DNA of 32,824 bases from IMG/VR virus record IMGVR_UViG_3300025391_000257, positions 1 to 32,824 of that record. The stretch is one strand, 5' to 3'. Under the pieces are notes generated by a model, which saw only the letters and a program-made list of their open reading frames with translations, searched no databases and was not told the origin of the DNA. Position 1 is the first letter of the stretch. The number at the start of each line of letters is the position of its first letter. Both the position numbers and the translations under genes were made by a program. The stretch is from a virus (Duplodnaviria; Caudoviricetes). Shown in pieces: positions 1-27,842 of this stretch.

Positions 1-104
1 ATATAGCCACCCGGCATTGTTCCCGGTGGTGTGGTATTATTAGTCTGTGAGGCCGCGGTAAAACTTATTATTGTAACAAAAACAAATAATAAAAACTTTT
101 TCAT
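1..104 (-). CDS. N-terminus of a secreted protein, truncated by the window edge; probably the next gene of the curli-like operon
   Basis: ATG at 104 overlaps the FecR gene stop (ATGA). Reads MKKFLLFVFVTIISFTAASQTNNTTPPGTMPGGY, a Sec-type signal peptide, and stays open to the edge. Confidence 0.75.
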   Translation of the reverse strand, partial: MKKFLLFVFVTIISFTAASQTNNTTPPGTMPGGY

Positions 105-1252
105 TTGTATGTCTGCGTAATAGTTATACTGCCTTGTGGCTTGGCTGTTGCGCCTCCAAAGTTATAAGCATCTGTTACACGATCCTGAGTAATGGTCAAT
201 AATATCTTGCTATCGTTGGCTACAGTAACGCCAGCATAGTTTAATCCACTGGCACTAAGACCAAACCACCCCCAACCCGTTTGATTCAAATTAGGATTAT
301 CATTTTTAAAGATAGGAAATATGTTTGGATCTTCATCTGGGTTTAGTTTAACCACTGTACCTTTTTTCTGTAGATCTAATAACTTTTGTGTTGCGGCTGC
401 TACTGCGGCATCTGCTTCAGCCTGCGCCTTTTCTTTATCTGTCTGCTGGCTTTTTTCTTGCTGTTGGGTAGTGTTTGCCTCAGCTAGTGTTGGACCGTTT
501 GTATCCGCTTTGGCAGAATCTTCTTTTTTAGCATCACCTGTTTTAACGGCGGCTGTTTTTGCAGCCTGCTGTACTGCTTGTCCGGTCATTGTGGTTGGAG
601 GACGTATAATTAAATTATTACCAATTGGGGAATTAGATAAATTTACAATAATTGGAGTTGTAGGAGCATCACCTTCTATTCCAACTATGGTTGCTTGATA
701 TGGTTTGTCTAGGTGTACGATATGTCCGTTAGCTTCAACATCGATTTTTCCACTACCACAAACAAGTCCTTTTAGATTAACCACCTGTACATTTTCTTCA
801 CAAGTTGGCATTAACATAACGAGACTTTTTCCTGTTTCATCTACACTCATAACAAAATCGGTCCCACGAACCGCAATAGCGGCCGTGGGGGTCTTGATGT
901 TCACACTGTTTGGATTGTTGTGAGCAATATTACCAGACACATAACGTACTGTGCCTTCCGCGGCCTTAAGGCCAAGTTTACCACCTTTTGTTTTAGGGTC
1001 GTAAACAAAGTCGTCTATGACTAATGCGCTACTTGCCGTTACTCGCACGGTTGTATCGTCTTTGAATGTTATTTTTACTTCGCCTGCTTTTGCCTCTACA
1101 CGATCATTCATTTCAATGGCCGTGCCTTTAACAAGTGTTACACTGGTATTGCCACGTTTTACGATAGCAGTACCAGTGACATCTGTTACAGAACCAATAT
1201 CTGCCACTGCCGCAGTTGCGACTAACAATAATGACAGTGCTAGATATCTCAC
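101..1252 (-). CDS. FecR-domain secreted protein
   Basis: Signal peptide; FecR-like motifs (ITFKDDTTVRV, LVIDDFVYDP, IKTPTAAIAVRGTDF). Confidence 0.85.
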   Translation of the reverse strand: MRYLALSLLLVATAAVADIGSVTDVTGTAIVKRGNTSVTLVKGTAIEMNDRVEAKAGEVKITFKDDTTVRVTASSALVIDDFVYDPKTKGGKLGLKAAEGTVRYVSGNIAHNNPNSVNIKTPTAAIAVRGTDFVMSVDETGKSLVMLMPTCEENVQVVNLKGLVCGSGKIDVEANGHIVHLDKPYQATIVGIEGDAPTTPIIVNLSNSPIGNNLIIRPPTTMTGQAVQQAAKTAAVKTGDAKKEDSAKADTNGPTLAEANTTQQQEKSQQTDKEKAQAEADAAVAAATQKLLDLQKKGTVVKLNPDEDPNIFPIFKNDNPNLNQTGWGWFGLSASGLNYAGVTVANDSKILLTITQDRVTDAYNFGGATAKPQGSITITQTYK

Positions 1253-1261
1253 AACTACTCC

Positions 1262-2065
1262 TTAGTGACTATGTTGAATAATGTTAAAACTACCGCCAGC
1301 GGCAGTAGCACTAATATTAGCTACGTTAGAGTAGGTTCCTGTTTGTGATATGTTAAATGTTGTACTTCCTGTTCCGTTTTGTGTTAATACTAGACTACTT
1401 GCTGTAGCACTAGATTGTAATACATTAACTGTATTATTATCAGTGTTAGTCAAGTTGATCAACTGTTGATGATTATCGCCAATTTGTTGACTGTTAATTG
1501 TATTACCGCCACCAGTTACATAGATAGAACTGACTAAGTTAGCACCTTGACCTGAATAGTTCAATGTATTACCAACTTGTTTACCAGTGCTGTCCAATCT
1601 CCAGTCTAGGCTAGCATTGGCACAACCTGTTCCGGCTGAACTATCTCCGCAAACTGCGTTAATAGTGTTCAATGGACCATTTTGTAAAATATTAACATTG
1701 GCATTATCGCCGCCAAGATGTAGAGAATTGATAATGTTACCAACTCCAACTTGTTCAATAGTTACCACTTGGCTGTTTCCTTTAATAACCATACTTGCAA
1801 CTGTACCACTAGCATCGCTACCAGCACGGTTACTATTGCCATCTTGGACAATACTAACTGTTGGAGTAGATCCGCTTTGTTCCAAATAGATAATATTAGT
1901 TGTAGCATTGTGTAACGCTGAAGTTACGCCCGCACTAAAACTAGTACTATTTTGGGTAGTGATTGCCGGAGCAGTTCCTGCTGTAGGAGCTGTCGGCACT
2001 GTTTGTGACCATGCAGTTTGTGCAAACACCGAAGCGATTGCTACTGCTATTATTATTTTTTTCAT
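1262..2065 (-). CDS. Curlin-repeat (CsgA/CsgB-like) secreted protein
   Basis: Signal peptide; repeated hydrophobic-x-hydrophobic-x-Q-x-G-x-x-N units (SIVQDGNSN, TIEQVGVGN, NILQNGPLN, SQQIGDNH, ISQTGTYSN); N/Q/G/S/T-rich; directly downstream of csgG. Confidence 0.75.
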   Translation of the reverse strand: MKKIIIAVAIASVFAQTAWSQTVPTAPTAGTAPAITTQNSTSFSAGVTSALHNATTNIIYLEQSGSTPTVSIVQDGNSNRAGSDASGTVASMVIKGNSQVVTIEQVGVGNIINSLHLGGDNANVNILQNGPLNTINAVCGDSSAGTGCANASLDWRLDSTGKQVGNTLNYSGQGANLVSSIYVTGGGNTINSQQIGDNHQQLINLTNTDNNTVNVLQSSATASSLVLTQNGTGSTTFNISQTGTYSNVANISATAAGGSFNIIQHSH

Positions 2066-2168
2066 TTTTGTTACTCTCCGTGCGGGCTATTAACCCAAAT
2101 AAACTTCTACAAACCTACCTTTTTACTAAAATATTTAAGTTTAATTGTGTTTCAATTATACTCTGCTG

Positions 2169-3017
2169 TTATTTTTTTAACACCTCAGGTGTTGGATTTT
2201 CAACAGGTGTTGGATTTTCAACACCAGCCTTAAACTTCCAAAGTCCCTGACGTTCACCTTTCTTTACCAATTCCACAATACCTTGTTCGATAGCACTACG
2301 TAATGCGTAGTTGCCTGGCTCATTAAAACTTTGGCTACTATCAAATTCAAAGGTTTGTGTGTTTTGATTGAAAAACTTCATCGCAGTTGCTCCATCCATT
2401 GTGCTCAACAAATTCTTTTCAATGGTTACACTGGTCAACACTTCACCGGATTGTACACTTACTAAACGTAAGCTAATTACAACTTGATCCTGTGTGTATT
2501 GTGTATAAGGACCGATACCAAATATTGCTACACCGGTACCACCTGTCAATACGTTGCTGTTGTAATCAATGATACCGCCTTCTAAGATAACACCCGCTAG
2601 TGTTAGTGGAGGTAATATCTTGGCATTTGCGCCTTCATAGATTTCGCGAGTCTGTTTGATCATCTGACGTTCTTTTAACAAGTCGTCTAGATTTGTGCGC
2701 TCTACAACTGTGAACCATTGTGAGTGGCCTGCTTCGCTCAAACTCTTAATCAAGTAGGCTTCAGCACCTTGTGTAACTGCTGTTGAAAACAAACTTAGTG
2801 TTTGGCTTGGTTTGCGTTGCCCTGTCATATCTTTGAAACTGTATACTGCCACAGCAACTTTAGGACCTGCTGGTGCTGGTAGTGTATCAATTGCTTTGAC
2901 TACAGTTTCTGATACTTTTGGTTGTTCTTTAATATTAATGTCACCGAACGGTCGTACAGTTGAACATCCTGCTAATGCTACTGCAAGAGCTAATGCTGAT
3001 AGTTTTAATGTTTTCAT
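2169..3017 (-). CDS. csgG: Curli secretion channel lipoprotein CsgG
   Basis: Lipobox LAGC; VAVYSFKDMTGQRKP, FSTAVTQGA, WFTVVER, LLKERQMI and ILEGGIIDY match CsgG. Confidence 0.93.
   Translation of the reverse strand: MKTLKLSALALAVALAGCSTVRPFGDINIKEQPKVSETVVKAIDTLPAPAGPKVAVAVYSFKDMTGQRKPSQTLSLFSTAVTQGAEAYLIKSLSEAGHSQWFTVVERTNLDDLLKERQMIKQTREIYEGANAKILPPLTLAGVILEGGIIDYNSNVLTGGTGVAIFGIGPYTQYTQDQVVISLRLVSVQSGEVLTSVTIEKNLLSTMDGATAMKFFNQNTQTFEFDSSQSFNEPGNYALRSAIEQGIVELVKKGERQGLWKFKAGVENPTPVENPTPEVLKK
2186..2223. repeat. 18-bp tandem duplication in the csgG 3' end (VENPTP x2)
   Basis: caggtgttggattttcaa at 2186-2203 and 2204-2221. Confidence 0.9.
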
Positions 3018-3027
3018 CTAGCTCTCC

Positions 3028-3519
3028 TTAAAATGCAAAACTTGAAATTGGCACAACAATTTGTTGTGTATATGTGCTGTTAGCAACAAAGTTTCCATTG
3101 CTGTCTTTTTTACCATCATATACTGTTAGGGTAACTTGTCCATTAGATTTTGCCCATTGGATTTGTTGTGTATCACTGACCATAAAATTTCCACTGTTAC
3201 AAGTTTGGCCGGCTGGGCAAGAACCAAATAGATTGTTTGTTAGTTGTGTAGCCAATTGACTATACACCTGTCCTGTGAACAAGCTCATAAATTTAGCCAA
3301 TGGTGTATTTGCGGCTGCGGCTGCGGCATTGGCGGCATCTGCGGCAATTTTGGCATCTCGTTGTTGTACAGCACTTTGACGCATCTGTTCTAAAGTCAAT
3401 ACTTGTGTACTCCAACCATTTCCGCTAAATGTTGGATCTTTAAATTGCTGTACTAATTCTGCATGTGCAATATTTGCAGTCAGTATGCAAAAAGTACTGG
3501 CCATCAGTAATTTTTTCAT
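3028..3519 (-). CDS. csgF: Curli assembly protein CsgF
   Basis: Signal peptide followed by ELVQQFKDPTFSGNG (CsgF N-terminal motif) and LAKFMSLFTGQVYSQLATQL; immediately upstream of csgG. Confidence 0.82.
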   Translation of the reverse strand: MKKLLMASTFCILTANIAHAELVQQFKDPTFSGNGWSTQVLTLEQMRQSAVQQRDAKIAADAANAAAAAANTPLAKFMSLFTGQVYSQLATQLTNNLFGSCPAGQTCNSGNFMVSDTQQIQWAKSNGQVTLTVYDGKKDSNGNFVANSTYTQQIVVPISSFAF

Positions 3520-3540
3520 GAGTTTCGCTCCTCTATACTT

Positions 3541-3546
3541 TATTTA
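3541..3546 (-). promoter_or_regulatory. T4-like late promoter core (TAAATA) for the curli-like operon; representative of a recurring motif
   Basis: TAAATA on the minus strand shortly upstream of gene starts at 2132, 3541, 5633, 9672, 14242, 17130, 19013, 23123, 25246, 27381, 29468, 29995, 30400, 31082 and 31797; on the plus strand at 31872 and 32378. Full TATAAATA at 5633-5640 and 27381-27388. Confidence 0.7.
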
Positions 3547-3593
3547 CAGAGAAGTTAGTCGTATTAAACTAGTAGTTTAATCAGAATTTAATA

Positions 3594-3965
3594 TTATAAT
3601 TTTAATAAGAATATGCACATTGCCAAATATGTTACTTGATGTGCTAATTGGTCATAACCAAACTGTGCCCAGAATAGAGGTTTGGTGTTGTCTTTACTAC
3701 CATAATGTACTTTGATAAAGTCTATATGATAGTGTAGTATACCTTCGGCAAGGCATAACCATATGATTGTAAAAGGATTTGTAGCATAGAAAAAACTGTA
3801 GACAAGTAATGCTACTAAACTTGTCCAAACATGGTCAACACTATGACTTATACCAATAGGATCACGATAGATGCCTTTATGCACCGTTTGTTTATAGGTC
3901 TGTATTACAAAGTCTGCGTAGCAATGTTTGATTTGCAATAAGAATAGAAGTAATATAATTTCCAT
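3594..3965 (-). CDS. DUF3307-like membrane protein
   Basis: KHCYADFVIQT, HSVDH, HYHIDFIK and GYDQLAH His/Asp motifs with hydrophobic helices. Confidence 0.8.
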   Translation of the reverse strand: MEIILLLFLLQIKHCYADFVIQTYKQTVHKGIYRDPIGISHSVDHVWTSLVALLVYSFFYATNPFTIIWLCLAEGILHYHIDFIKVHYGSKDNTKPLFWAQFGYDQLAHQVTYLAMCIFLLKL

Positions 3966-4020
3966 GTTGTACTATTTATAATACTACATGTTAACTGATA
4001 TTACAAGCGATTTGGCAAAT

Positions 4021-5625
4021 TTAGAAGTATTTGATAATTAAACTATCAACTTGCTCAATAGCTTCTTCTAATGCTGGTGTTATTCGTCTAGGTGCTCGAC
4101 CCTTTGGAGTAGTTGTAGCTACTTCGGGTGCGGTATTAGATACCACCGCTGTTTCTGGTGATACTGTAGCTTCTTTTTTTGCCTTCTGTTTAAGTTGGGC
4201 GGCTTTGGCTACTCTTAATTGTGGAAACTTGGTTTCCAATGACTGCATAAAGAAAGAACGATCTGGATTGCTTCTTTGATCATCAACTAGCCCAGTGGCA
4301 TATGAGACCATATTTGCGATTGTGCGTTTATCAGTAATACCACGTATTCTACAAAGTTCCGTGATAATCGGTTGAACTAGTTTAATACGTGTTTCTAAAG
4401 TAGTTGAACCCCATGCTCGTTTTTTAAACTCTGGTTTCTTTAACTGTCCAGTAGCGTATTCTGCACCAAAGGTACTGGGAATAACTTCTACTTGTGGGTA
4501 TACATTTCGATTAGGATCTTTAAGACTTGATAGATAAGGGGTAGCAATATGGAAACGCAGACCTTCTTTTCTTAAATCATCAGTTGAATTATAAAAAACA
4601 AAATCTTTACTGTTTAGGTTAGTATTTAAAACACCATAGTCATCTTTTTGTGATAGGTAGTAGTTAAAGTTAGCTTGGCCCCAAATTTCTTTAGCTTCGT
4701 TTGCATTACCAGATTTAACAGCACTCATAATACCTGCTACAGCTTTCTTCATGTGTTTACCGAAGAAAATAGCCTTAACACAGTTCTCGACTTTTGTTAA
4801 AAAGGTAGCTTTTTTAGCAGGTGGTAATATTTTATAAATGTCTATAGCGATCGACAAGGCTAATCCCGCGTCAGGTAATACACTTTTACCTGTTACCTGT
4901 TTGTATATTGCTTTATTATCGGCAATGAAATCATTTAGTTCTTGAGCGGCTGGAGCAAATGTTGCCATATTAGGAGTAACTTGCTGATCACCAAATCGAG
5001 CAGATCCACCGTGTGTTGTTTTACATTCAATCTTTTTCCAACTATCACCGTAATAGATTAACAAATCGCCTTTTTTCTTATTGCCTTCTTCATCTTCTTC
5101 ATCTTCTGCGGCATCAACTGCTTTATCTTCTGCAGGTTTAGCAATGTGTTTACTCAGTACATTGAGACCAAATTCGCCCTTACCTTGTCCAAGTGCGGCA
5201 ATAGACATAACTCTATCAACTAGTAATTTGATAGCATTATTAGTTTCATAGTCTCTAAAGATTTCTGCAAAGCTGTGTTTATTTTTTGATAATAGTTTGT
5301 CAATATCGACAATAGTACCTGCTTTCCAGTAGTCTAATAATTGTCGTTTTTCTTTAGGATCTGCATCAGCTGTAAGAACAAACATGGCCAAATCTTGTTG
5401 GAAACCGGTAACCGCAGGATCTTGAATTTGTCTTAATTCATCTTGTAGTCTAGCCATACGTCCGCCAGCATTAACACTTTGAAGAATCTCTTCAATTTCT
5501 ATCAGTGCTTTACGTGTCTTGTCGTCTTCGGGAAGCTGGCGTAATTGCCCAAGCAAACTAGTTTTCATTTGCTTGATTTCAGCCGGATCGGCAGGTTCTT
5601 CTAGTAATAAATCATCTATACGCAT
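4021..5625 (-). CDS. Large phage protein with a putative PD-(D/E)XK nuclease core
   Basis: 534-aa ORF; GKGE...KGDLLI...KIECK motif order fits a restriction-endonuclease-like fold; TATAAATA directly upstream. Confidence 0.55.
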   Translation of the reverse strand: MRIDDLLLEEPADPAEIKQMKTSLLGQLRQLPEDDKTRKALIEIEEILQSVNAGGRMARLQDELRQIQDPAVTGFQQDLAMFVLTADADPKEKRQLLDYWKAGTIVDIDKLLSKNKHSFAEIFRDYETNNAIKLLVDRVMSIAALGQGKGEFGLNVLSKHIAKPAEDKAVDAAEDEEDEEGNKKKGDLLIYYGDSWKKIECKTTHGGSARFGDQQVTPNMATFAPAAQELNDFIADNKAIYKQVTGKSVLPDAGLALSIAIDIYKILPPAKKATFLTKVENCVKAIFFGKHMKKAVAGIMSAVKSGNANEAKEIWGQANFNYYLSQKDDYGVLNTNLNSKDFVFYNSTDDLRKEGLRFHIATPYLSSLKDPNRNVYPQVEVIPSTFGAEYATGQLKKPEFKKRAWGSTTLETRIKLVQPIITELCRIRGITDKRTIANMVSYATGLVDDQRSNPDRSFFMQSLETKFPQLRVAKAAQLKQKAKKEATVSPETAVVSNTAPEVATTTPKGRAPRRITPALEEAIEQVDSLIIKYF

Positions 5626-5635
5626 AATGTAATAT

Positions 5636-6316
5636 TTATACTATTTCAGGGAACAGGCATTCTTGTACAAAGTGCTGTACATCTTCTTCACTTAGCCCTA
5701 GACTAACCATTACACGCGGTGTATGTGGATTACATTTTTGATTTTGAGCATAGTAGTTCTGCTCATATTTGGTGCTAGCCACTGTGTTGTTAGTTTCTCC
5801 TACTGCGGATAGATAGTGTATTATTGTAGTTTTAGCTAGATTGGTAATCTGTTCAAGTTCTTCTTCATCTTGTACGTTGCCAGCGGCAACCATGCTAGGA
5901 CTGAATATGTTAGTGGCCCATTCTGGAAGGGCACGTTCTCTGCGCCAAGTTAATTTGGCTACTTCTCCGGCAAACCATTCCATCATGGGGTGATTAGCAT
6001 CACCAGCTTTTGAGTAATCGTGGAAACAACCGGTAATTTTATTCTTACCAGCTATAACATCGAAACCGTAAATTGGAGCAGGATTATGTAGATGTGGAAA
6101 GATGCAACAATGCATCATCCAGAGTCCTTTTTGATCTCTCGCATCAACCACATCAACGTGAGCACGGCGATAAAGAGGAGAACTCCATACACGATTAGAC
6201 CAACCGGGTTGATTGAAGCGATCCATTCCAGGCTCAAAGATTTCAGTGCCAGTCCGGCCAAATTCAGTCTCCAATAATTGTTGAATATTTATTAGAGTAT
6301 CCCAAACTTTACTCAT
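5636..6316 (-). CDS. pcyX: Ferredoxin-dependent bilin reductase, PcyX/PcyA-type
   Basis: RRAHVD, MMHCCIFP, PIYGFDVIAG, LPEWATNIFS and QKCNPHT; His69/Asp86 catalytic pair; Asp55 where PcyA has a Glu; adjacent heme oxygenase. Confidence 0.85.
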   Translation of the reverse strand: MSKVWDTLINIQQLLETEFGRTGTEIFEPGMDRFNQPGWSNRVWSSPLYRRAHVDVVDARDQKGLWMMHCCIFPHLHNPAPIYGFDVIAGKNKITGCFHDYSKAGDANHPMMEWFAGEVAKLTWRRERALPEWATNIFSPSMVAAGNVQDEEELEQITNLAKTTIIHYLSAVGETNNTVASTKYEQNYYAQNQKCNPHTPRVMVSLGLSEEDVQHFVQECLFPEIV

Positions 6317-6860
6317 TAGGCACCAATGTCATCATTTCTTCAAACAATTCACCGGCAAATTTAAAACATAGTTTAGCTTCGTCGGCCATATCATCAGTTA
6401 ATTTCTCACGAATATTTGCCTTAAGAGCATCAGCATCTTCAAACTTATACATACGCCCGGACCCAGGAACCCGTTTGGCAATCATCTGTCCGCCGGCCAT
6501 GTCTCCAAAATGGCGTACATAAATATGTGCTAGTAATTTTTTAGGATCGTCTTTGATACTCATAATGTGATCGATGTAACGTTTAACCACAGGAAGTATT
6601 GTAGGTTCGCCGTCGATTTCTCTATCCCATAGCTCTTCAAAATCTGAAATAATTGCAGGCGCACGTCGAGCATCTGCGGTATTGCCTAATAATCCAGGAT
6701 ACATCATAGCACACACTTCTACAATTTCATAACAAGGATGCTGATTTTTTAAATACTGTGCGTATAGCTTAGGATCAATCTTTCCTGAAAACAAAACTTT
6801 TACAAATGGTTTTGTTTCAGCTTCTTTATGTGCTTCATAGGTAAGATCTTTTAAACTCAT
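6309..6860 (-). CDS. hemO: Heme oxygenase
   Basis: LKDLTYEAHKEAE (proximal His) and HIYVRHFGDMAGGQMI (distal helix). Confidence 0.92.
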   Translation of the reverse strand: MSLKDLTYEAHKEAETKPFVKVLFSGKIDPKLYAQYLKNQHPCYEIVEVCAMMYPGLLGNTADARRAPAIISDFEELWDREIDGEPTILPVVKRYIDHIMSIKDDPKKLLAHIYVRHFGDMAGGQMIAKRVPGSGRMYKFEDADALKANIREKLTDDMADEAKLCFKFAGELFEEMMTLVPNE

Positions 6861-7159
6861 TCTTCTTCCAATTTAATTTGTAATGGATGGCCGTTTGTAC
6901 GAGCCTGGGTAGTTGCTTCGACTGCTTTAGATTCGGCTATTTCAAAGCTATAAATACCTGCCACTCCGGATCCAGTTTCGTGGACTTGTAACATTATATC
7001 CCTAGCACTGTCTTGAGTGTGTTTAAAAATTTCAACTAAGACTGCAATCACAAACTCCATTGGTGTTGAATCATCATTTAGTAGAATTACCTTCCAACGC
7101 TTAGGTTCAGATGCACGAATTTTAATCTTCTCGTCTAGTTGGATATCAGTTGTTGACAT
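6857..7159 (-). CDS. clpS: ATP-dependent Clp protease adaptor ClpS
   Basis: WKVILLNDDSTPMEFVIAVL, MLQVHETG, AESK and GHPL; start reassigned to the ATG at 7159. Confidence 0.95.
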   Translation of the reverse strand: MSTTDIQLDEKIKIRASEPKRWKVILLNDDSTPMEFVIAVLVEIFKHTQDSARDIMLQVHETGSGVAGIYSFEIAESKAVEATTQARTNGHPLQIKLEEE

Positions 7160-7172
7160 TATATTCTCTTTC

Positions 7173-7196
7173 AAAAGAGGGGGAGTTGCCTCCCCC
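7173..7196 (-). terminator. Rho-independent terminator after hsp20
   Basis: GGGGGAG-GCAA-CTCCCCC followed by TCTTTT on the minus strand. Confidence 0.8.
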
Positions 7197-7202
7197 GGTT
7201 GA

Positions 7203-7634
7203 TTATTTAACTTTAATAATACGTGGTTTTAATGCTTCTGGAACAATACGTTCAATTTCAATAACCAACATACCGTCCTTAACTTCTGCATCTTTAACTT
7301 CCATGTATTCAGCAAGAGTCCATGTTTGTTCAAAGTTGCGTGATGCTAAACCTCTGTGCAAATATTCTTTGCTTTCGTTTACTACTTCACCTTGTATACC
7401 ACGAACAACTAATTGATCCTGGTCCACTTCTACTGTGATTTCATCTTTACTGAATCCTGCTACTGCTACTTCAATAGCATATTTACTATCACTATATTTC
7501 ACAATGTTATGTGGAGGATAGTTACCATTTACTTGTTGCAGTCTCTGGTTAAAGATTTGATCGAAACCAATTAAGGCTCTACTTAGATTTGCGAAGTCCG
7601 CTGGACTTACTGTTTTTAATTGCATCGTTGCCAT
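7203..7634 (-). CDS. Small heat-shock protein (Hsp20/IbpA family)
   Basis: IGFD, NYPPHNIVK, IEVAVAGF, YLHRGLASRNF, DGML and PEALKPR. Confidence 0.96.
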   Translation of the reverse strand: MATMQLKTVSPADFANLSRALIGFDQIFNQRLQQVNGNYPPHNIVKYSDSKYAIEVAVAGFSKDEITVEVDQDQLVVRGIQGEVVNESKEYLHRGLASRNFEQTWTLAEYMEVKDAEVKDGMLVIEIERIVPEALKPRIIKVK

Positions 7635-11693: not shown

Positions 11694-12090
11694 TATCCTC
11701 ACCTTCTTGTTGGTTTTTTATTTGTTCTACAATAAAATCTAAATCATATATTCTACTTCTACTTATCAAGTGATAAGGAGTAGCTTCATCTTTAGTCATG
11801 TAATAAGCATTAGGATGTGCCAACATAAAAGAAACAAATTTTTGAGTAATCGGATCACAATTATCAATGTCAATAATTATACAATCAACTTGATTTGCTA
11901 TACTTAGCATCCACCCGATATCTGTGTCATCGTTGTCAAAAATAAAAACGTTTAGATCTTCAATACTTTGACTAAGGATAGTTTGAAACTGTTCTTTAAC
12001 ATAGTTACTAGGCTTCACCAGCAAGTATCCCAGATTTATATTAAACAACTTATCCGGTGGTGTTATTAAGGTTATTCTTCCTAGATTCAT
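11677..12090 (-). CDS. Hypothetical phage protein
   Basis: 137-aa ORF in operon orientation that overlaps the rpsU start. Confidence 0.8.
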
Positions 12091-12160
12091 ATTAACATTC
12101 TATTATTAAGTTTTGACCAAAGACTATTTGGGTTAAATTGTTCTTCATTTTGAACATATT

Positions 12161-13468
12161 CTACTCTCTTGTTTTTGTTTGCAAGATCCCGTCCTCGTCC
12201 TTGATCATGTAGGTCTTTTTTTTTGAGTTGTCCTCGGGTAAATCAACGTCCAAAGAAACTTCGTGTCCTTCACCGTTGATATATGTTTCCCCTTTTGCTA
12301 CCCTTTCTTCAACCGTAGACTCTGGTTGGGCTATTGCCTTTTCAGCTTCTTCTATCATACGGTTCCATTTATCTAATTCACTTATAGATTCAGATGAATC
12401 TACTGTAATTTCTTCTGGCGCTGTTATATCACCTCCTAGTGCAGTCGCCGGCGTTGCGATAAATTCTTCTTCACTGATATCTTCACCAATCTCATAGTCA
12501 ACAATTGGTTCTTTTTTTGGTACTTCAAATTCTGGACCAGTCTGTATCCATTCTCCTCCAGGAGTACGCACACCTTCAAATTCGGTAACAGTTTCTTTAA
12601 TCTGCTCAATTTGAGTTTCTGTCAGAGGTCCATCATCTTTCTCGTAGTCTGCAGGCTTCTCGCCTACATCTGCTACATAAGGATCAGGTGTATCTTCTTT
12701 CAAATCTTGTTGTTCTCTTGTCCATGCAAATGTCATCTGTGCGGCTAGTAACATAATAACTGCTAGTGGATCAAATACAACAACGATTAAGATAATGATC
12801 CAAGTTACTGCTCGTTCCAGCATGGACTCGTCCGGTGCTGTTCCGTAGAGGAAGGCAGCGATATACTTAATAGGGCCAACTTCGGCTTCGACCTTACGTA
12901 CTTCTGCACGTACTGGAGCCGCTTCGTCGTTAAGACTAGCAATAAGTTTCTGCTGGGCTTCAATGTCTTTGGCAAGCGAAACCCTGTCCTTCTGCTGACT
13001 CTTACGTACAGAGTTGGCTTTGTCGGCACCTTTTTCATCTGACGAGCGACCCATGATTTGGTCCACCGCTTCATCCATCTGTTTAAGTTGCTTCCTGTCA
13101 GCTTCGATATTCTCTTTGGCAGTTTTAATTTTTTCATCATATACAGCTATTTTACTCCCGACATCGCCGCTCACTAGCGTTTGATCGTTGTGTGCTTTAC
13201 TAAGGAATCCAAAGATACCCATTGATGTGATCAGCATCAGTACAATGACTGCAATAGTCATATAGTATTTCATGAAGCGTGGAGCCTTTTCCCAATTGGC
13301 TTTTAACCAAGAGGCGCAGACAAGTTTGCCAACTTCTAGTGCCGAACCCATAATGATGATGGGAATAGCGGCCGCTGAAAAGATAGCGGTCAAACCTACT
13401 ACTGAGTAATAGATTGCGACCGCCGATATTGTTAAACCTGTTAAGAGTAGTAAGTAAGCTAGTATCAT
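12161..13468 (-). CDS. Membrane-anchored coiled-coil protein with an acidic tail; candidate -1 frameshift extends it to 12087
   Basis: Three N-terminal TM helices, a coiled coil, a further TM and an acidic tail. Start probably ATG 13468. Slippery A-AAA-AAG at 12221-12215. Confidence 0.85.
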   Translation of the reverse strand: MILAYLLLLTGLTISAVAIYYSVVGLTAIFSAAAIPIIIMGSALEVGKLVCASWLKANWEKAPRFMKYYMTIAVIVLMLITSMGIFGFLSKAHNDQTLVSGDVGSKIAVYDEKIKTAKENIEADRKQLKQMDEAVDQIMGRSSDEKGADKANSVRKSQQKDRVSLAKDIEAQQKLIASLNDEAAPVRAEVRKVEAEVGPIKYIAAFLYGTAPDESMLERAVTWIIILIVVVFDPLAVIMLLAAQMTFAWTREQQDLKEDTPDPYVADVGEKPADYEKDDGPLTETQIEQIKETVTEFEGVRTPGGEWIQTGPEFEVPKKEPIVDYEIGEDISEEEFIATPATALGGDITAPEEITVDSSESISELDKWNRMIEEAEKAIAQPESTVEERVAKGETYINGEGHEVSLDVDLPEDNSKKKTYMIKDEDGILQTKTRE

Positions 13469-26008: not shown

Positions 26009-26317
26009 CTACGCGAACTCTCGATCTGTGGCTGCCATCGCCATTTTTGTTATATCATCTTCGCCATTATCTTGCCCCTGACCTTTTGGTTCTTGTTTAT
26101 TGTTAGTATTAAGAACTATACCTTGGTCGTTAAAACGGGTAACAAGTTGTTTAAGGATTGGATCGCTGTCCCAACGTGCTTTGAATCGATTATAGTCGAT
26201 TGGGATACCAGCATTTTGAAGTTCTTCCCAAGTTTCAACTTCTTCTTGGTCAGTATTATTGGCTGCAGATTGCATAACCTGCAGCCTTTGAATTAACGGA
26301 TCTATTGTTTCAATTAT
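26009..26317 (-). CDS. Orphan reading frame, probably the -1 frameshift extension of 26314..27351
   Basis: Frame is open from the A10 run: IIETIDPLIQRLQV-MQSAANN...DREFA. The internal ATG at 26275 sits in a hairpin loop. Confidence 0.65.
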   Translation of the reverse strand: MIETIDPLIQRLQVMQSAANNTDQEEVETWEELQNAGIPIDYNRFKARWDSDPILKQLVTRFNDQGIVLNTNNKQEPKGQGQDNGEDDITKMAMAATDREFA

Positions 26318-27351
26318 TTTTTTTTTGATTGAGCTAAAAGGATGCCTAACTTGCGGCTGTATTCAACGCCTTCACGCTTCATACGACCGGCAGCTTCTGG
26401 GCCTGCTCCGCCTGCTTCAGCACCCATCTCTGGTGCTTCTTCTTCACCGCCTGGCATTGGAGGCATACCGCCTTCAGCACCCATAGCTGGAGCTTCTTCT
26501 GCACCGGGTACTGGAGGCATACCGCCTGTGTCAGCACCCATTGTAGGAGCTTCGCCACCTGATACTACAGATAGTCCAGCTGATAGTCCTTGACGACTTG
26601 ATTCTAATGCTGAATAAACTTGTTCTAGTGCTGGTTTGACTGATTGCTCGTACTTGCTAGCAACGTCACTGCCTAGTGTTTCTCTTATAGAGTCTAATAA
26701 TTCTAAAAGGTGTTCAGCTTTTAGCTGAGCAACGTCTTCTAGCCAGCCTGTAATTTGGTCGACCATGTCTTTAGTTGCCATAATTACTGATGCTTTTTGT
26801 TCTTCGCCTTCTTTCAAGTAAACGATATAGTTAGCCTGACTTTCTGATAGGTCATAACGTGTGGTTAATTCTGCGGCCAATTCTTCTTCATCTGATTCGC
26901 CTAATTTGATACGACTGATTGCTGATTCGATCCACTTAGTTGGAACTGAATGCTCACGTGCCTTTTTAACCATTAATGCTAAACTTACACTTTCCATTTT
27001 CTTTTTCTTATCCTTTGCGGCCTTCTTCATGGCTTCTTTCTTATTACCATCTTTATCTAGATCTAGGAAATCTGGTTTTGCGCCTTCATACATGCCTTCT
27101 TCACGCTCTAAGATGTGTTGATTAATAACATCTAATAAAGCGCGAGTCTTTTGATATTTTGGATTTGAACTGATGTTATCGAAACTTTCACTAACTTCGA
27201 ATTGGCTCATTTCAGTACGTAGTTTATTACGTACATCTTCTAACTGGGCATCACTAAACTGTTCTAAATTTAGTTTGTAGCCAAACTGTTTAGCTAGGCT
27301 TTCATTAAGCTTCTTAGCTGTGATTGGTTTTGATAGTTCTCTAATTTGCAT
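26314..27351 (-). CDS. Putative prohead core/scaffold-like protein
   Basis: TATAAATA upstream; start MQIREL at 27351; acidic and helical; KPDFLDLDKDGNKKE motif; PG/E-rich linker; ends SKKK. Confidence 0.65.
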   Translation of the reverse strand: MQIRELSKPITAKKLNESLAKQFGYKLNLEQFSDAQLEDVRNKLRTEMSQFEVSESFDNISSNPKYQKTRALLDVINQHILEREEGMYEGAKPDFLDLDKDGNKKEAMKKAAKDKKKKMESVSLALMVKKAREHSVPTKWIESAISRIKLGESDEEELAAELTTRYDLSESQANYIVYLKEGEEQKASVIMATKDMVDQITGWLEDVAQLKAEHLLELLDSIRETLGSDVASKYEQSVKPALEQVYSALESSRQGLSAGLSVVSGGEAPTMGADTGGMPPVPGAEEAPAMGAEGGMPPMPGGEEEAPEMGAEAGGAGPEAAGRMKREGVEYSRKLGILLAQSKKK

Positions 27352-27383
27352 GATGGTTTCCCTAAAGCGTTTCTTATTACTAT

Positions 27384-27842
27384 TTATACAAAACTCCACT
27401 TAAACATAGTGGAAATCTTTTCCTGGAAATGTTCAGCGAGGAATTTGCTGTGTTCTAGTTTGTTCAACAGAACCAAATACCTGTCGTAATCTTTGGCTGT
27501 TTTGATGTTCTTACTGTATATCATAGTATCAGAATAATAAGCCCAGTACCTAGTGTCTAATCTTTTAATCTCTATGAATTTTTCTATGCTAGATTTACTA
27601 TACTCCTTAGCCGCCATGATTGCGCAGGTTTTTAAGTAAAATTGCTCGATCACATCTTTGTTACGAATATCGTAAATAGCCCAGTTTTCGTGGTCGTTTT
27701 GTTTGATATAGTAGTTCTTATAGACAATTGACCCGTCTGGTTGTACACTTATTGGTAATGATTTTTTAAGATCTGCTTCAAAGTGCGTTACTAGTTCTTT
27801 GACTATCTTGGGATTAGGTTTTTTAGTTTTGGTTTTTTTCAT
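27384..27842 (-). CDS. Hypothetical phage protein
   Basis: 152-aa ORF that overlaps the upstream gene. Confidence 0.8.
   Translation of the reverse strand: MKKTKTKKPNPKIVKELVTHFEADLKKSLPISVQPDGSIVYKNYYIKQNDHENWAIYDIRNKDVIEQFYLKTCAIMAAKEYSKSSIEKFIEIKRLDTRYWAYYSDTMIYSKNIKTAKDYDRYLVLLNKLEHSKFLAEHFQEKISTMFKWSFV

Follow-up and report, generated by a model that had tools for sequence, protein, structure and literature searches.

A conserved run of about nine adenines and two alternative C-terminal tails in a membrane-protein gene of freshwater phages: probable slippage of RNA polymerase

A gene that carries nine consecutive adenines shortly before its stop codon, followed by an open stretch in a second reading frame, raises the question of whether it makes one protein or two and, if two, which enzyme changes the frame. 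Such a gene lies in a 32.8-kb virus record from a freshwater metagenome (32,824 nucleotides, here called the window), the relatives of which are on contigs of 300-383 kb. The original prediction for this locus was a -1 ribosomal frameshift of the Escherichia coli dnaX type, with A_AAA_AAG as the slippery heptamer, an internal Shine-Dalgarno (SD) sequence as stimulator, two isoforms, and coupling of the longer one to the downstream genes.

The site and the gene that carries it

The elements of the prediction were found in the sequence as claimed. On the minus strand, A9 stands at 12224-12216 and is followed by G at 12215, with the in-phase A_AAA_AAG at 12221-12215, and GAGG at 12235-12232 lies 10 nt from the heptamer. 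The 0 frame stops 17 codons after the site, and the -1 frame reads 42 aa to the TGA at 12089-12087, which shares an ATGA with the start codon at 12090. Counted from the ATG at 13468, the products would be 435 and 460 aa, the sizes that had been predicted. The features around the site are as follows.

13503-13475, minus strand: sigma-70-like promoter TTGCAA-17-TATAAT, 6 nt 5' of the main-ORF ATG (13468)
12161..13468, minus strand: main ORF, 435 aa, from ATG 13468 to TAG 12163-12161
12232..12235, minus strand: GAGG, SD-like, present in the window, not conserved
12215..12225, minus strand: candidate slip site C-A9-G (TCA AAA AAA AAG), containing in-phase A_AAA_AAG and A_AAA_AAA
12161..12214, minus strand: short tail (0 frame), 17 aa with a TYMIKDxxGxxQxK-type motif, then TAG; conserved
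12087..12215, minus strand: long tail (-1 frame), 42 aa in the window
12117..12158, minus strand: Y[VI]QNxEQ...[LI]W motif of the long tail, with invariant residues
11677..12090, minus strand: downstream gene, 137 aa, with no family match; the TGA of the long tail overlaps its ATG

Contigs from three of the four public runs (X7, X11 and X13) cover 12139-12439 unbroken, with no indel listed, and because they cross the site gap-free the A9 is not an assembly error; as assembled contigs, unlike raw reads, they do not show rare variants, and the fourth run (X1) has no listed bridging piece over the site. Only two runs of eight or more adenines occur in the window, and the site is one of them.

According to a structure model (all-helical, pLDDT 71) and hydropathy, the main ORF encodes three predicted N-terminal transmembrane helices, a coiled-coil hairpin of about 100 residues, a fourth transmembrane helix and an acidic tail, with 45 D/E against 13 K/R in residues 257-416. 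The positive-inside rule predicts the topology of membrane proteins, and by this rule the coiled coil is predicted to be periplasmic and the tail cytoplasmic. It is likely, judging from the model, that the protein serves as an anchor in the inner membrane, with an acidic cytoplasmic tail that carries at its end either one or the other of two docking peptides; as a working model, we infer that the two isoforms dock different partners. The main ORF had no PHROG match and no PDB fold at E<=0.001, and its match to Tetraspanin (PF00335) reached 23.9 bits, under the Pfam gathering cut-off of 32.1. For the membrane domain, the -1 domain and the downstream protein, no match was obtained in Pfam, PHROG, NCBIfam, PDB sequences or folds, and the ESM Atlas and BFVD matches were uncharacterised phage proteins only. 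Two homologues from cultured phages, examined out of 15 records matched (XacN1 ORF242 and Mosig_00157), are hypothetical proteins with neither run nor motif.

The gene lies in a non-tail neighbourhood (rpsU, dnaK, exonuclease). The window holds dnaK-like, rpsU, hsp20, csgF/csgG, heme oxygenase, bilin reductase and nrdAB genes, and a block of FecR-like, CsgG, CsgF, ferredoxin-dependent bilin reductase, heme oxygenase and Hsp20 genes occupies 101-7634. A perfect TTGACA-17-TATAAT with extended TG stands at 11466-11438 on the minus strand, immediately 5' of the 193-aa exonuclease gene. The promoter-like site ahead of the main ORF overlaps an inverted repeat after the upstream gene and would yield a leaderless mRNA; it is lineage-specific, being present in only 7/114 relatives. 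Within about 45 nt upstream of the main ORF, 54/138 relatives carry TAAATA, which we take to resemble a T4-type late promoter.

Conservation of the run and of both tails

From a pool of 367 loci, 276 covered the membrane domain and gave 167 distinct sites; the N-terminal identity of the relatives to the window is 38-96%. The long-tail motif is out of frame (-1) in 112 of these sites, in frame without a run of nine in 28, and in frame with A9 or A10 in 17 (here called swapped), and 10 sites have no Y[VI]QNxEQ motif. Every one of the 112 relatives with an out-of-frame long tail has A8-A11 at the site (A9 in 98, A8 in seven, A10 in five and A11 in two), and a pyrimidine followed by about nine adenines was found at 129/129 loci. 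The prediction had called for conservation of the run together with the -1 peptide, and a pattern search made without reference to the run found A8-A11 at the exact spot in 76/77 distinct hits, A9G being the form in 70 of the 77; the remaining hit was discarded as an unrelated chance match. Among 80 loci fetched by protein, 76 and the window gave closed ORFs; their distinct ends number 60, of which 46 show A8G or A9G 15-18 codons before the stop and an open -1 frame.

The -1 frame is open through the overlap at 101/101 canonical loci, compared with about 15 expected from synonymous resampling, a count that is partly so by construction, since the downstream -1 motif served to class the loci. 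The short tail, in a form of 15-19 aa, is conserved in 109/112 relatives, and in the overlap (16-19 codons) 384 of 970 changes are synonymous in the short frame only, against 193 expected. 3' of the short stop, the third positions of the long frame are the most variable. Among 34 aligned long tails the residues Y, Q, N, E, Q and W are invariant, and the long tail reaches 100 aa or more in 76/112 relatives, with a predicted small helical domain. In the 28 relatives without the run, the long-tail motif is in frame with the membrane domain, and three run-less loci (L281, L315 and L328) hold both tail motifs in tandem in one frame, which makes the short tail look like a real peptide motif. Recoded genes, as their reading frames are arranged, would make the two motifs mutually exclusive. 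The predicted pair of isoforms with different C-termini is thus supported by the conservation of the tails in the relatives, and we are close to certain that the A9 site is one of real programmed recoding.

Several loci depart from these arrangements. In L283 (site at about 1437-1446) the run is A9G, the 0 frame ends after a single codon, and the short-tail motif and YVQN are both in the -1 frame, a third arrangement. L067 (at about 4206) has an in-frame TAA 5' of an otherwise intact A9G site, which is either a nonsense allele or an assembly error. L021, L027, L029 and L031 have a different C-terminal domain, without the YxQN motif and without the neighbouring 137-aa gene; the gene that directly follows them is presumably ClpX-like. 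L037, L214, L215 and others have C-terminal regions that are 85-91% identical, and the second half of their coiled coil carries different alleles; such mismatched coiled-coil alleles suggest that recombination may be frequent within the gene.

The long-tail stop overlaps the next ATG at 90/103 out-of-frame loci and at 17/20 run-less loci, the short-tail stop lies 64-310 nt upstream of that ATG, and an SD core precedes it in 1/103. From this layout, translational coupling of the long form to the downstream gene, as had been predicted, is plausible: only ribosomes making the long form would reach the next start, and the slip rate would then set part of the output of the downstream gene. Gene overlaps are common in phage operons, so the overlap argues only mildly for coupling. 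In spa13/spa32 of Shigella a slippage-made C-terminal extension is likewise described as overlapping the next start, the expression of which it affects; those are type III secretion genes on a plasmid with coupling shown, whereas here the coupling is putative (PMC5009743).

Ribosome or RNA polymerase

Frameshifting of the dnaX/IS3 type would make the long form in the window's lineage by a -1 ribosomal shift on A_AAA_AAG, with the overlapping A_AAA_AAA as a second chance and with or without help from the GAGG. The in-phase A_AAA_AAG, described as the most shift-prone heptamer in bacteria (PMC5009743), is present in the window and in 102/112 out-of-frame loci, and A_AAA_AAA in 105/112; seven A8G alleles keep the heptamer and drop the ninth adenine, and the second site described below has the same phase and G after the run in 45/54. 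The published SD rule (PMC4066793) asks for a stimulator at 6-17 nt in at least 50% of loci. The window itself fits this spacing, but only 16/102 loci qualify, against a background of 12.9%, and GAGG occurs at the window's offset in 8/102 canonical relatives; the GAGG is likely a by-product of acidic (Glu/Asp) codons. A 3' stem-loop was equally absent, with 0 consensus pairs in 32 sequences under pseudoknot-free folding (mean z -0.25, window z 0.1), and neither 3' nor 5' RNA structure gave a consensus (z<-2 in 11 and 10 of 102 loci). Of the original interpretation, recoding between two conserved C-termini stands, and the dnaX-like mechanism with a stimulatory SD does not find support, as neither the SD nor the 3' hairpin is conserved. 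Unstimulated heptamers in E. coli are reported to shift at no more than 10 times a background of 0.055% (PMC4066793).

The length of the run speaks against the ribosome as well: A6G suffices for A_AAA_AAG, but no A6 or A7 alleles occur among the 112 out-of-frame loci. A second Lys tRNA has been argued to dampen shifting at AAG (PMC5009743), and tRNA-Lys(CTT) was found in three of four near-complete relatives, two of those with the canonical A9G; the fourth had TTT only, in a partial scan. These four genomes (G001-G004; L476-L505) have 30-41 tRNA matches each, including intron-length tRNA-Ile(TAT) calls. Of the two Lys codons AAG is the rarer (798 vs 1940), and the in-phase heptamer in 102/112 loci and in 45/54 second-site loci may indicate that a ribosomal contribution has been selected; the G after the run is ambiguous as ribosomal evidence because it also caps the run at nine.

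The swapped relatives bear on the mechanism more directly. All 17 have the long tail in frame and retain A9 or A10, and 16 of the 17 have the short tail intact in the +1 frame, so that the main and minor products appear from the sequence to have been traded. In one group the sequence is xCT AAA AAA AAA G, the long tail being in frame and the short one in +1, and for one lineage 14/14 contigs agree on the swapped arrangement; a second group has C-A10-T and is 57-94% identical across the C-terminal region. The +1 tail keeps its motif and ends at a stop 5-8 nt ahead of the Tyr codon; of 87 changes, 37 are synonymous in this frame alone, against 18.3 expected (p=5e-6), a result from 9 edges among 11 swapped loci with an assumed ts/tv of 2 and non-independent pairs. 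Left out were L278 (chance A8), L248 (no short tail), L283 for its one-codon 0 frame, and loci without a same-length neighbour within 40%. The codon-position pattern also reverses against the downstream control (p=0.001). By this comparison, the +1 short tail of the swapped loci is under purifying selection.

A -1 ribosomal shift cannot reach that frame, so the swapped +1 tail is not its product: the direction is not fixed at -1, as 16 swapped loci need +1 for the selected tail. The in-phase A_AAA_AAG is absent in all 17 swapped loci and in 10 of the 112. As the source of the long form in the window's lineage, we consider -1 frameshifting unlikely, if still a serious candidate. The swapped lineages show a capacity of the family and not what the window's lineage does. 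Three swapped A10G alleles (L004, L212 and L235/L240) are sporadic and could stem from assembly errors or from slips in the DNA. Among 121 database proteins, two end as the third frame reads and one as the long form. In an N-terminal tree, from which 21/167 rows were left out for truncated N-termini, the swapped label needs 14 changes for 15 rows, and the number of swap origins cannot be counted from it because near-identical tails carry different coiled coils (mosaic).

The best explanation, and in our judgement a probable one on the sequence comparisons, is that RNA polymerase slips at the A9 between two conserved tails; it is similarly probable that recoding at this run is transcriptional and not ribosomal. 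The transcribing polymerase would stutter on the run, most mRNAs would keep nine adenines and encode the short-tailed protein of 435 aa, and those with one extra adenine would encode the 460-aa form, which ends in the YVQNEEQ..W tail. Third-frame mRNAs would terminate within a few codons, and in the common A9G form some of the output may also come from the -1 ribosomal shift on A_AAA_AAG. The length of the run is conserved (at least nine in 105/112 out-of-frame loci and eight in the remaining seven) and its codon phase is not, as it starts in all three phases (98/10/4), which favours transcriptional slippage; such slippage has been described for runs of nine A/T (PMC5009743). Slippage is further indicated by the 10 relatives without in-phase A_AAA_AAG together with the 17 in which the frames are reversed. 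The ninth adenine falls on the third, synonymous position of a codon, which is TCA in 83/102 loci vs 544/2323 Ser codons in the N-terminal region, and the third frame stops within five codons in 128/129 loci. Both slip directions are needed in one family (17 swapped loci vs 112 out-of-frame), and opposite directions in one family are a published criterion for transcriptional realignment (PMC3711429).

The slipping enzyme is likely the host polymerase because no phage RNA polymerase beta or beta' was found by Pfam in 4/4 relatives. A Pfam sigma-70 or RNA polymerase subunit was likewise absent in G001-G004, and a search for a T7-type enzyme, run without a positive control, gave none; a divergent phage polymerase could escape Pfam. 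A DFDGD pattern hit was rejected as an RNA polymerase, as it sits in an unrelated ORF. Two findings fit slippage less well. The seven A8G alleles retain the arrangement on a run where the E. coli enzyme slips poorly, and the swapped forms need a loss of one adenine or a gain of two; for E. coli RNA polymerase, weak slipping on A8 and no deletion of adenines on runs up to A8 are described (PMC6260861). A mixed mechanism, transcriptional and ribosomal, is quite possible.

Other explanations survive less well than slippage by RNA polymerase or frameshifting. The run could be a contingency locus, in which slippage of DNA polymerase keeps A9 and A10 genomes side by side with one tail per virion. 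Phage contingency loci at A9 have been described (bioRxiv 2025.10.21.683753), the sporadic A10G alleles would fit, and it is likely through such slips in DNA that the swapped lineages evolved. The mutant frequency given for A9 in phage T2, 7e-4 (bioRxiv 2025.10.21.683753), is however too low for strong selection on a hidden domain of 100 aa, and the lineages are stable and do not toggle (70/77 A9G in the pattern search and 14/14 swapped contigs); also, no indel contig was seen at the site at a depth of up to 229, where contigs drop rare variants. We therefore regard a contingency locus as improbable. Still less probable is undirected sliding of ribosomes on poly(A), which would yield both products by moving in either direction. 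Sliding is described as bidirectional and free of stimulators, which would fit the swapped lineages, but as robust on A11 with little on A9 or A10 (PMC4363877), and here 98/112 loci are A9 and only two A11. That there is no recoding at all, and the site reflects an assembly error, a pseudogenised tail (the -1 frame being a relic of the in-frame tail of the 28 relatives) or an independent small gene, is hardly credible and already largely refuted, since A9 is confirmed in three runs and more than 100 distinct loci at 38-96% N-terminal identity, invariant tail residues persist out of frame, and the -1 frame of the window has no ATG, GTG or TTG ahead of the YVQN motif.

A second site, known systems and significance

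The other long run of the window also ends a gene.

26317..26327, minus strand: second candidate slip site (TCA AAA AAA AAA TAA), A10 at 26326-26317, at the end of the 361-aa ORF 26314-27399

At this site the -1 frame is open for 102 aa to 26009 and runs through an annotated 88-aa ORF (26009-26275), which is thus likely a C-terminal extension of the 361-aa protein. The 361-aa ORF has a weak PHROG match to a virion structural protein. Among 81 loci, all 54 distinct closed ones keep C with A9 or A10 in an unchanged phase, and their open -1 frame exceeds 100 aa; the run is at least nine in 54/54, and the base after it is G in 45, C in four and A in five. Four near-complete relatives (1.38 Mb) contain 333 runs of A7, 43 of A8 and 10 of A9 or longer, and seven of these 10 are the two slip sites.

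Devices of this kind are already known in dnaX of Thermus thermophilus, tssM and spa13, and so are both mechanisms. The closest likeness is with tssM1 of Citrobacter rodentium and tssM3 of Yersinia pseudotuberculosis, which also encode an inner-membrane protein with a poly-A run, no SD or hairpin and two length variants, and in which slippage yields the longer variant in one species but the shorter in the other, a reversal like that between the canonical and swapped lineages here (PMC4256274). Unlike the present gene, tssM is a bacterial type VI secretion gene with A11, slippage in it is experimentally demonstrated, and its short form reportedly has no C-terminal domain (PMC4256274); the phage gene has two overlapping, separately conserved tails and an overlap with the next gene, and its slippage is inferred. 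The tau/gamma switch of T. thermophilus dnaX, ascribed to the mechanism favoured here, shares a run of nine, two Lys tRNAs and other frames that close nearby, but there the slip truncates an unrelated gene and here conserved tails would be exchanged (PMC5009743). The -1 frameshifts of E. coli dnaX and the IS3 family share the in-phase heptamer with 102/112 loci (PMC5009743, PMC4066793), and differ in that the site here has no conserved SD or 3' structure, a run longer than needed and no fixed direction. The phage recoding described in the papers cited here is ribosomal, in tail chaperones; gpG/gpGT likewise gives a minority C-terminally extended product close to the gene's 3' end, but by a ribosomal -1 shift in a tail-assembly chaperone and not in a predicted four-helix membrane protein with a coiled coil (PMC5009743). 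In the titles and abstract openings of the open-access literature we found no report of slippage in this phage family or in jumbo phages, and the main text of bioRxiv 10.64898/2026.10.24.761521 does not mention frameshifting or slippage; its supplements could list this family. What is new is the phage setting, two overlapping selected tails, the reversal inside one family and two genes that share the device.

If this reading is true, thousands of database entries (8000/8000 scored candidates match) miss a conserved hidden tail of 40-115 aa, and entries of the second gene family likewise miss a tail. The natural alleles (A8G, A9G, A9C, A10T and A11, in three phases and both directions) offer a test bed, with transcription and translation of A9G to be compared, and the natural series would show how run length, phase and flanks set the direction of the slip. 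Tentatively, the sequences may be read to mean that the freshwater phages of this clade (300-380 kb) rid their genomes of A9 runs save in two genes, where stuttering of the host RNA polymerase would work as a splice-like switch; at the gene studied here the switch would pick the docking peptide and meter the downstream gene, and in several lineages single-base changes would have reversed the major and minor products. Programmed transcriptional slippage would then be a genome-wide tool of a tailed phage.
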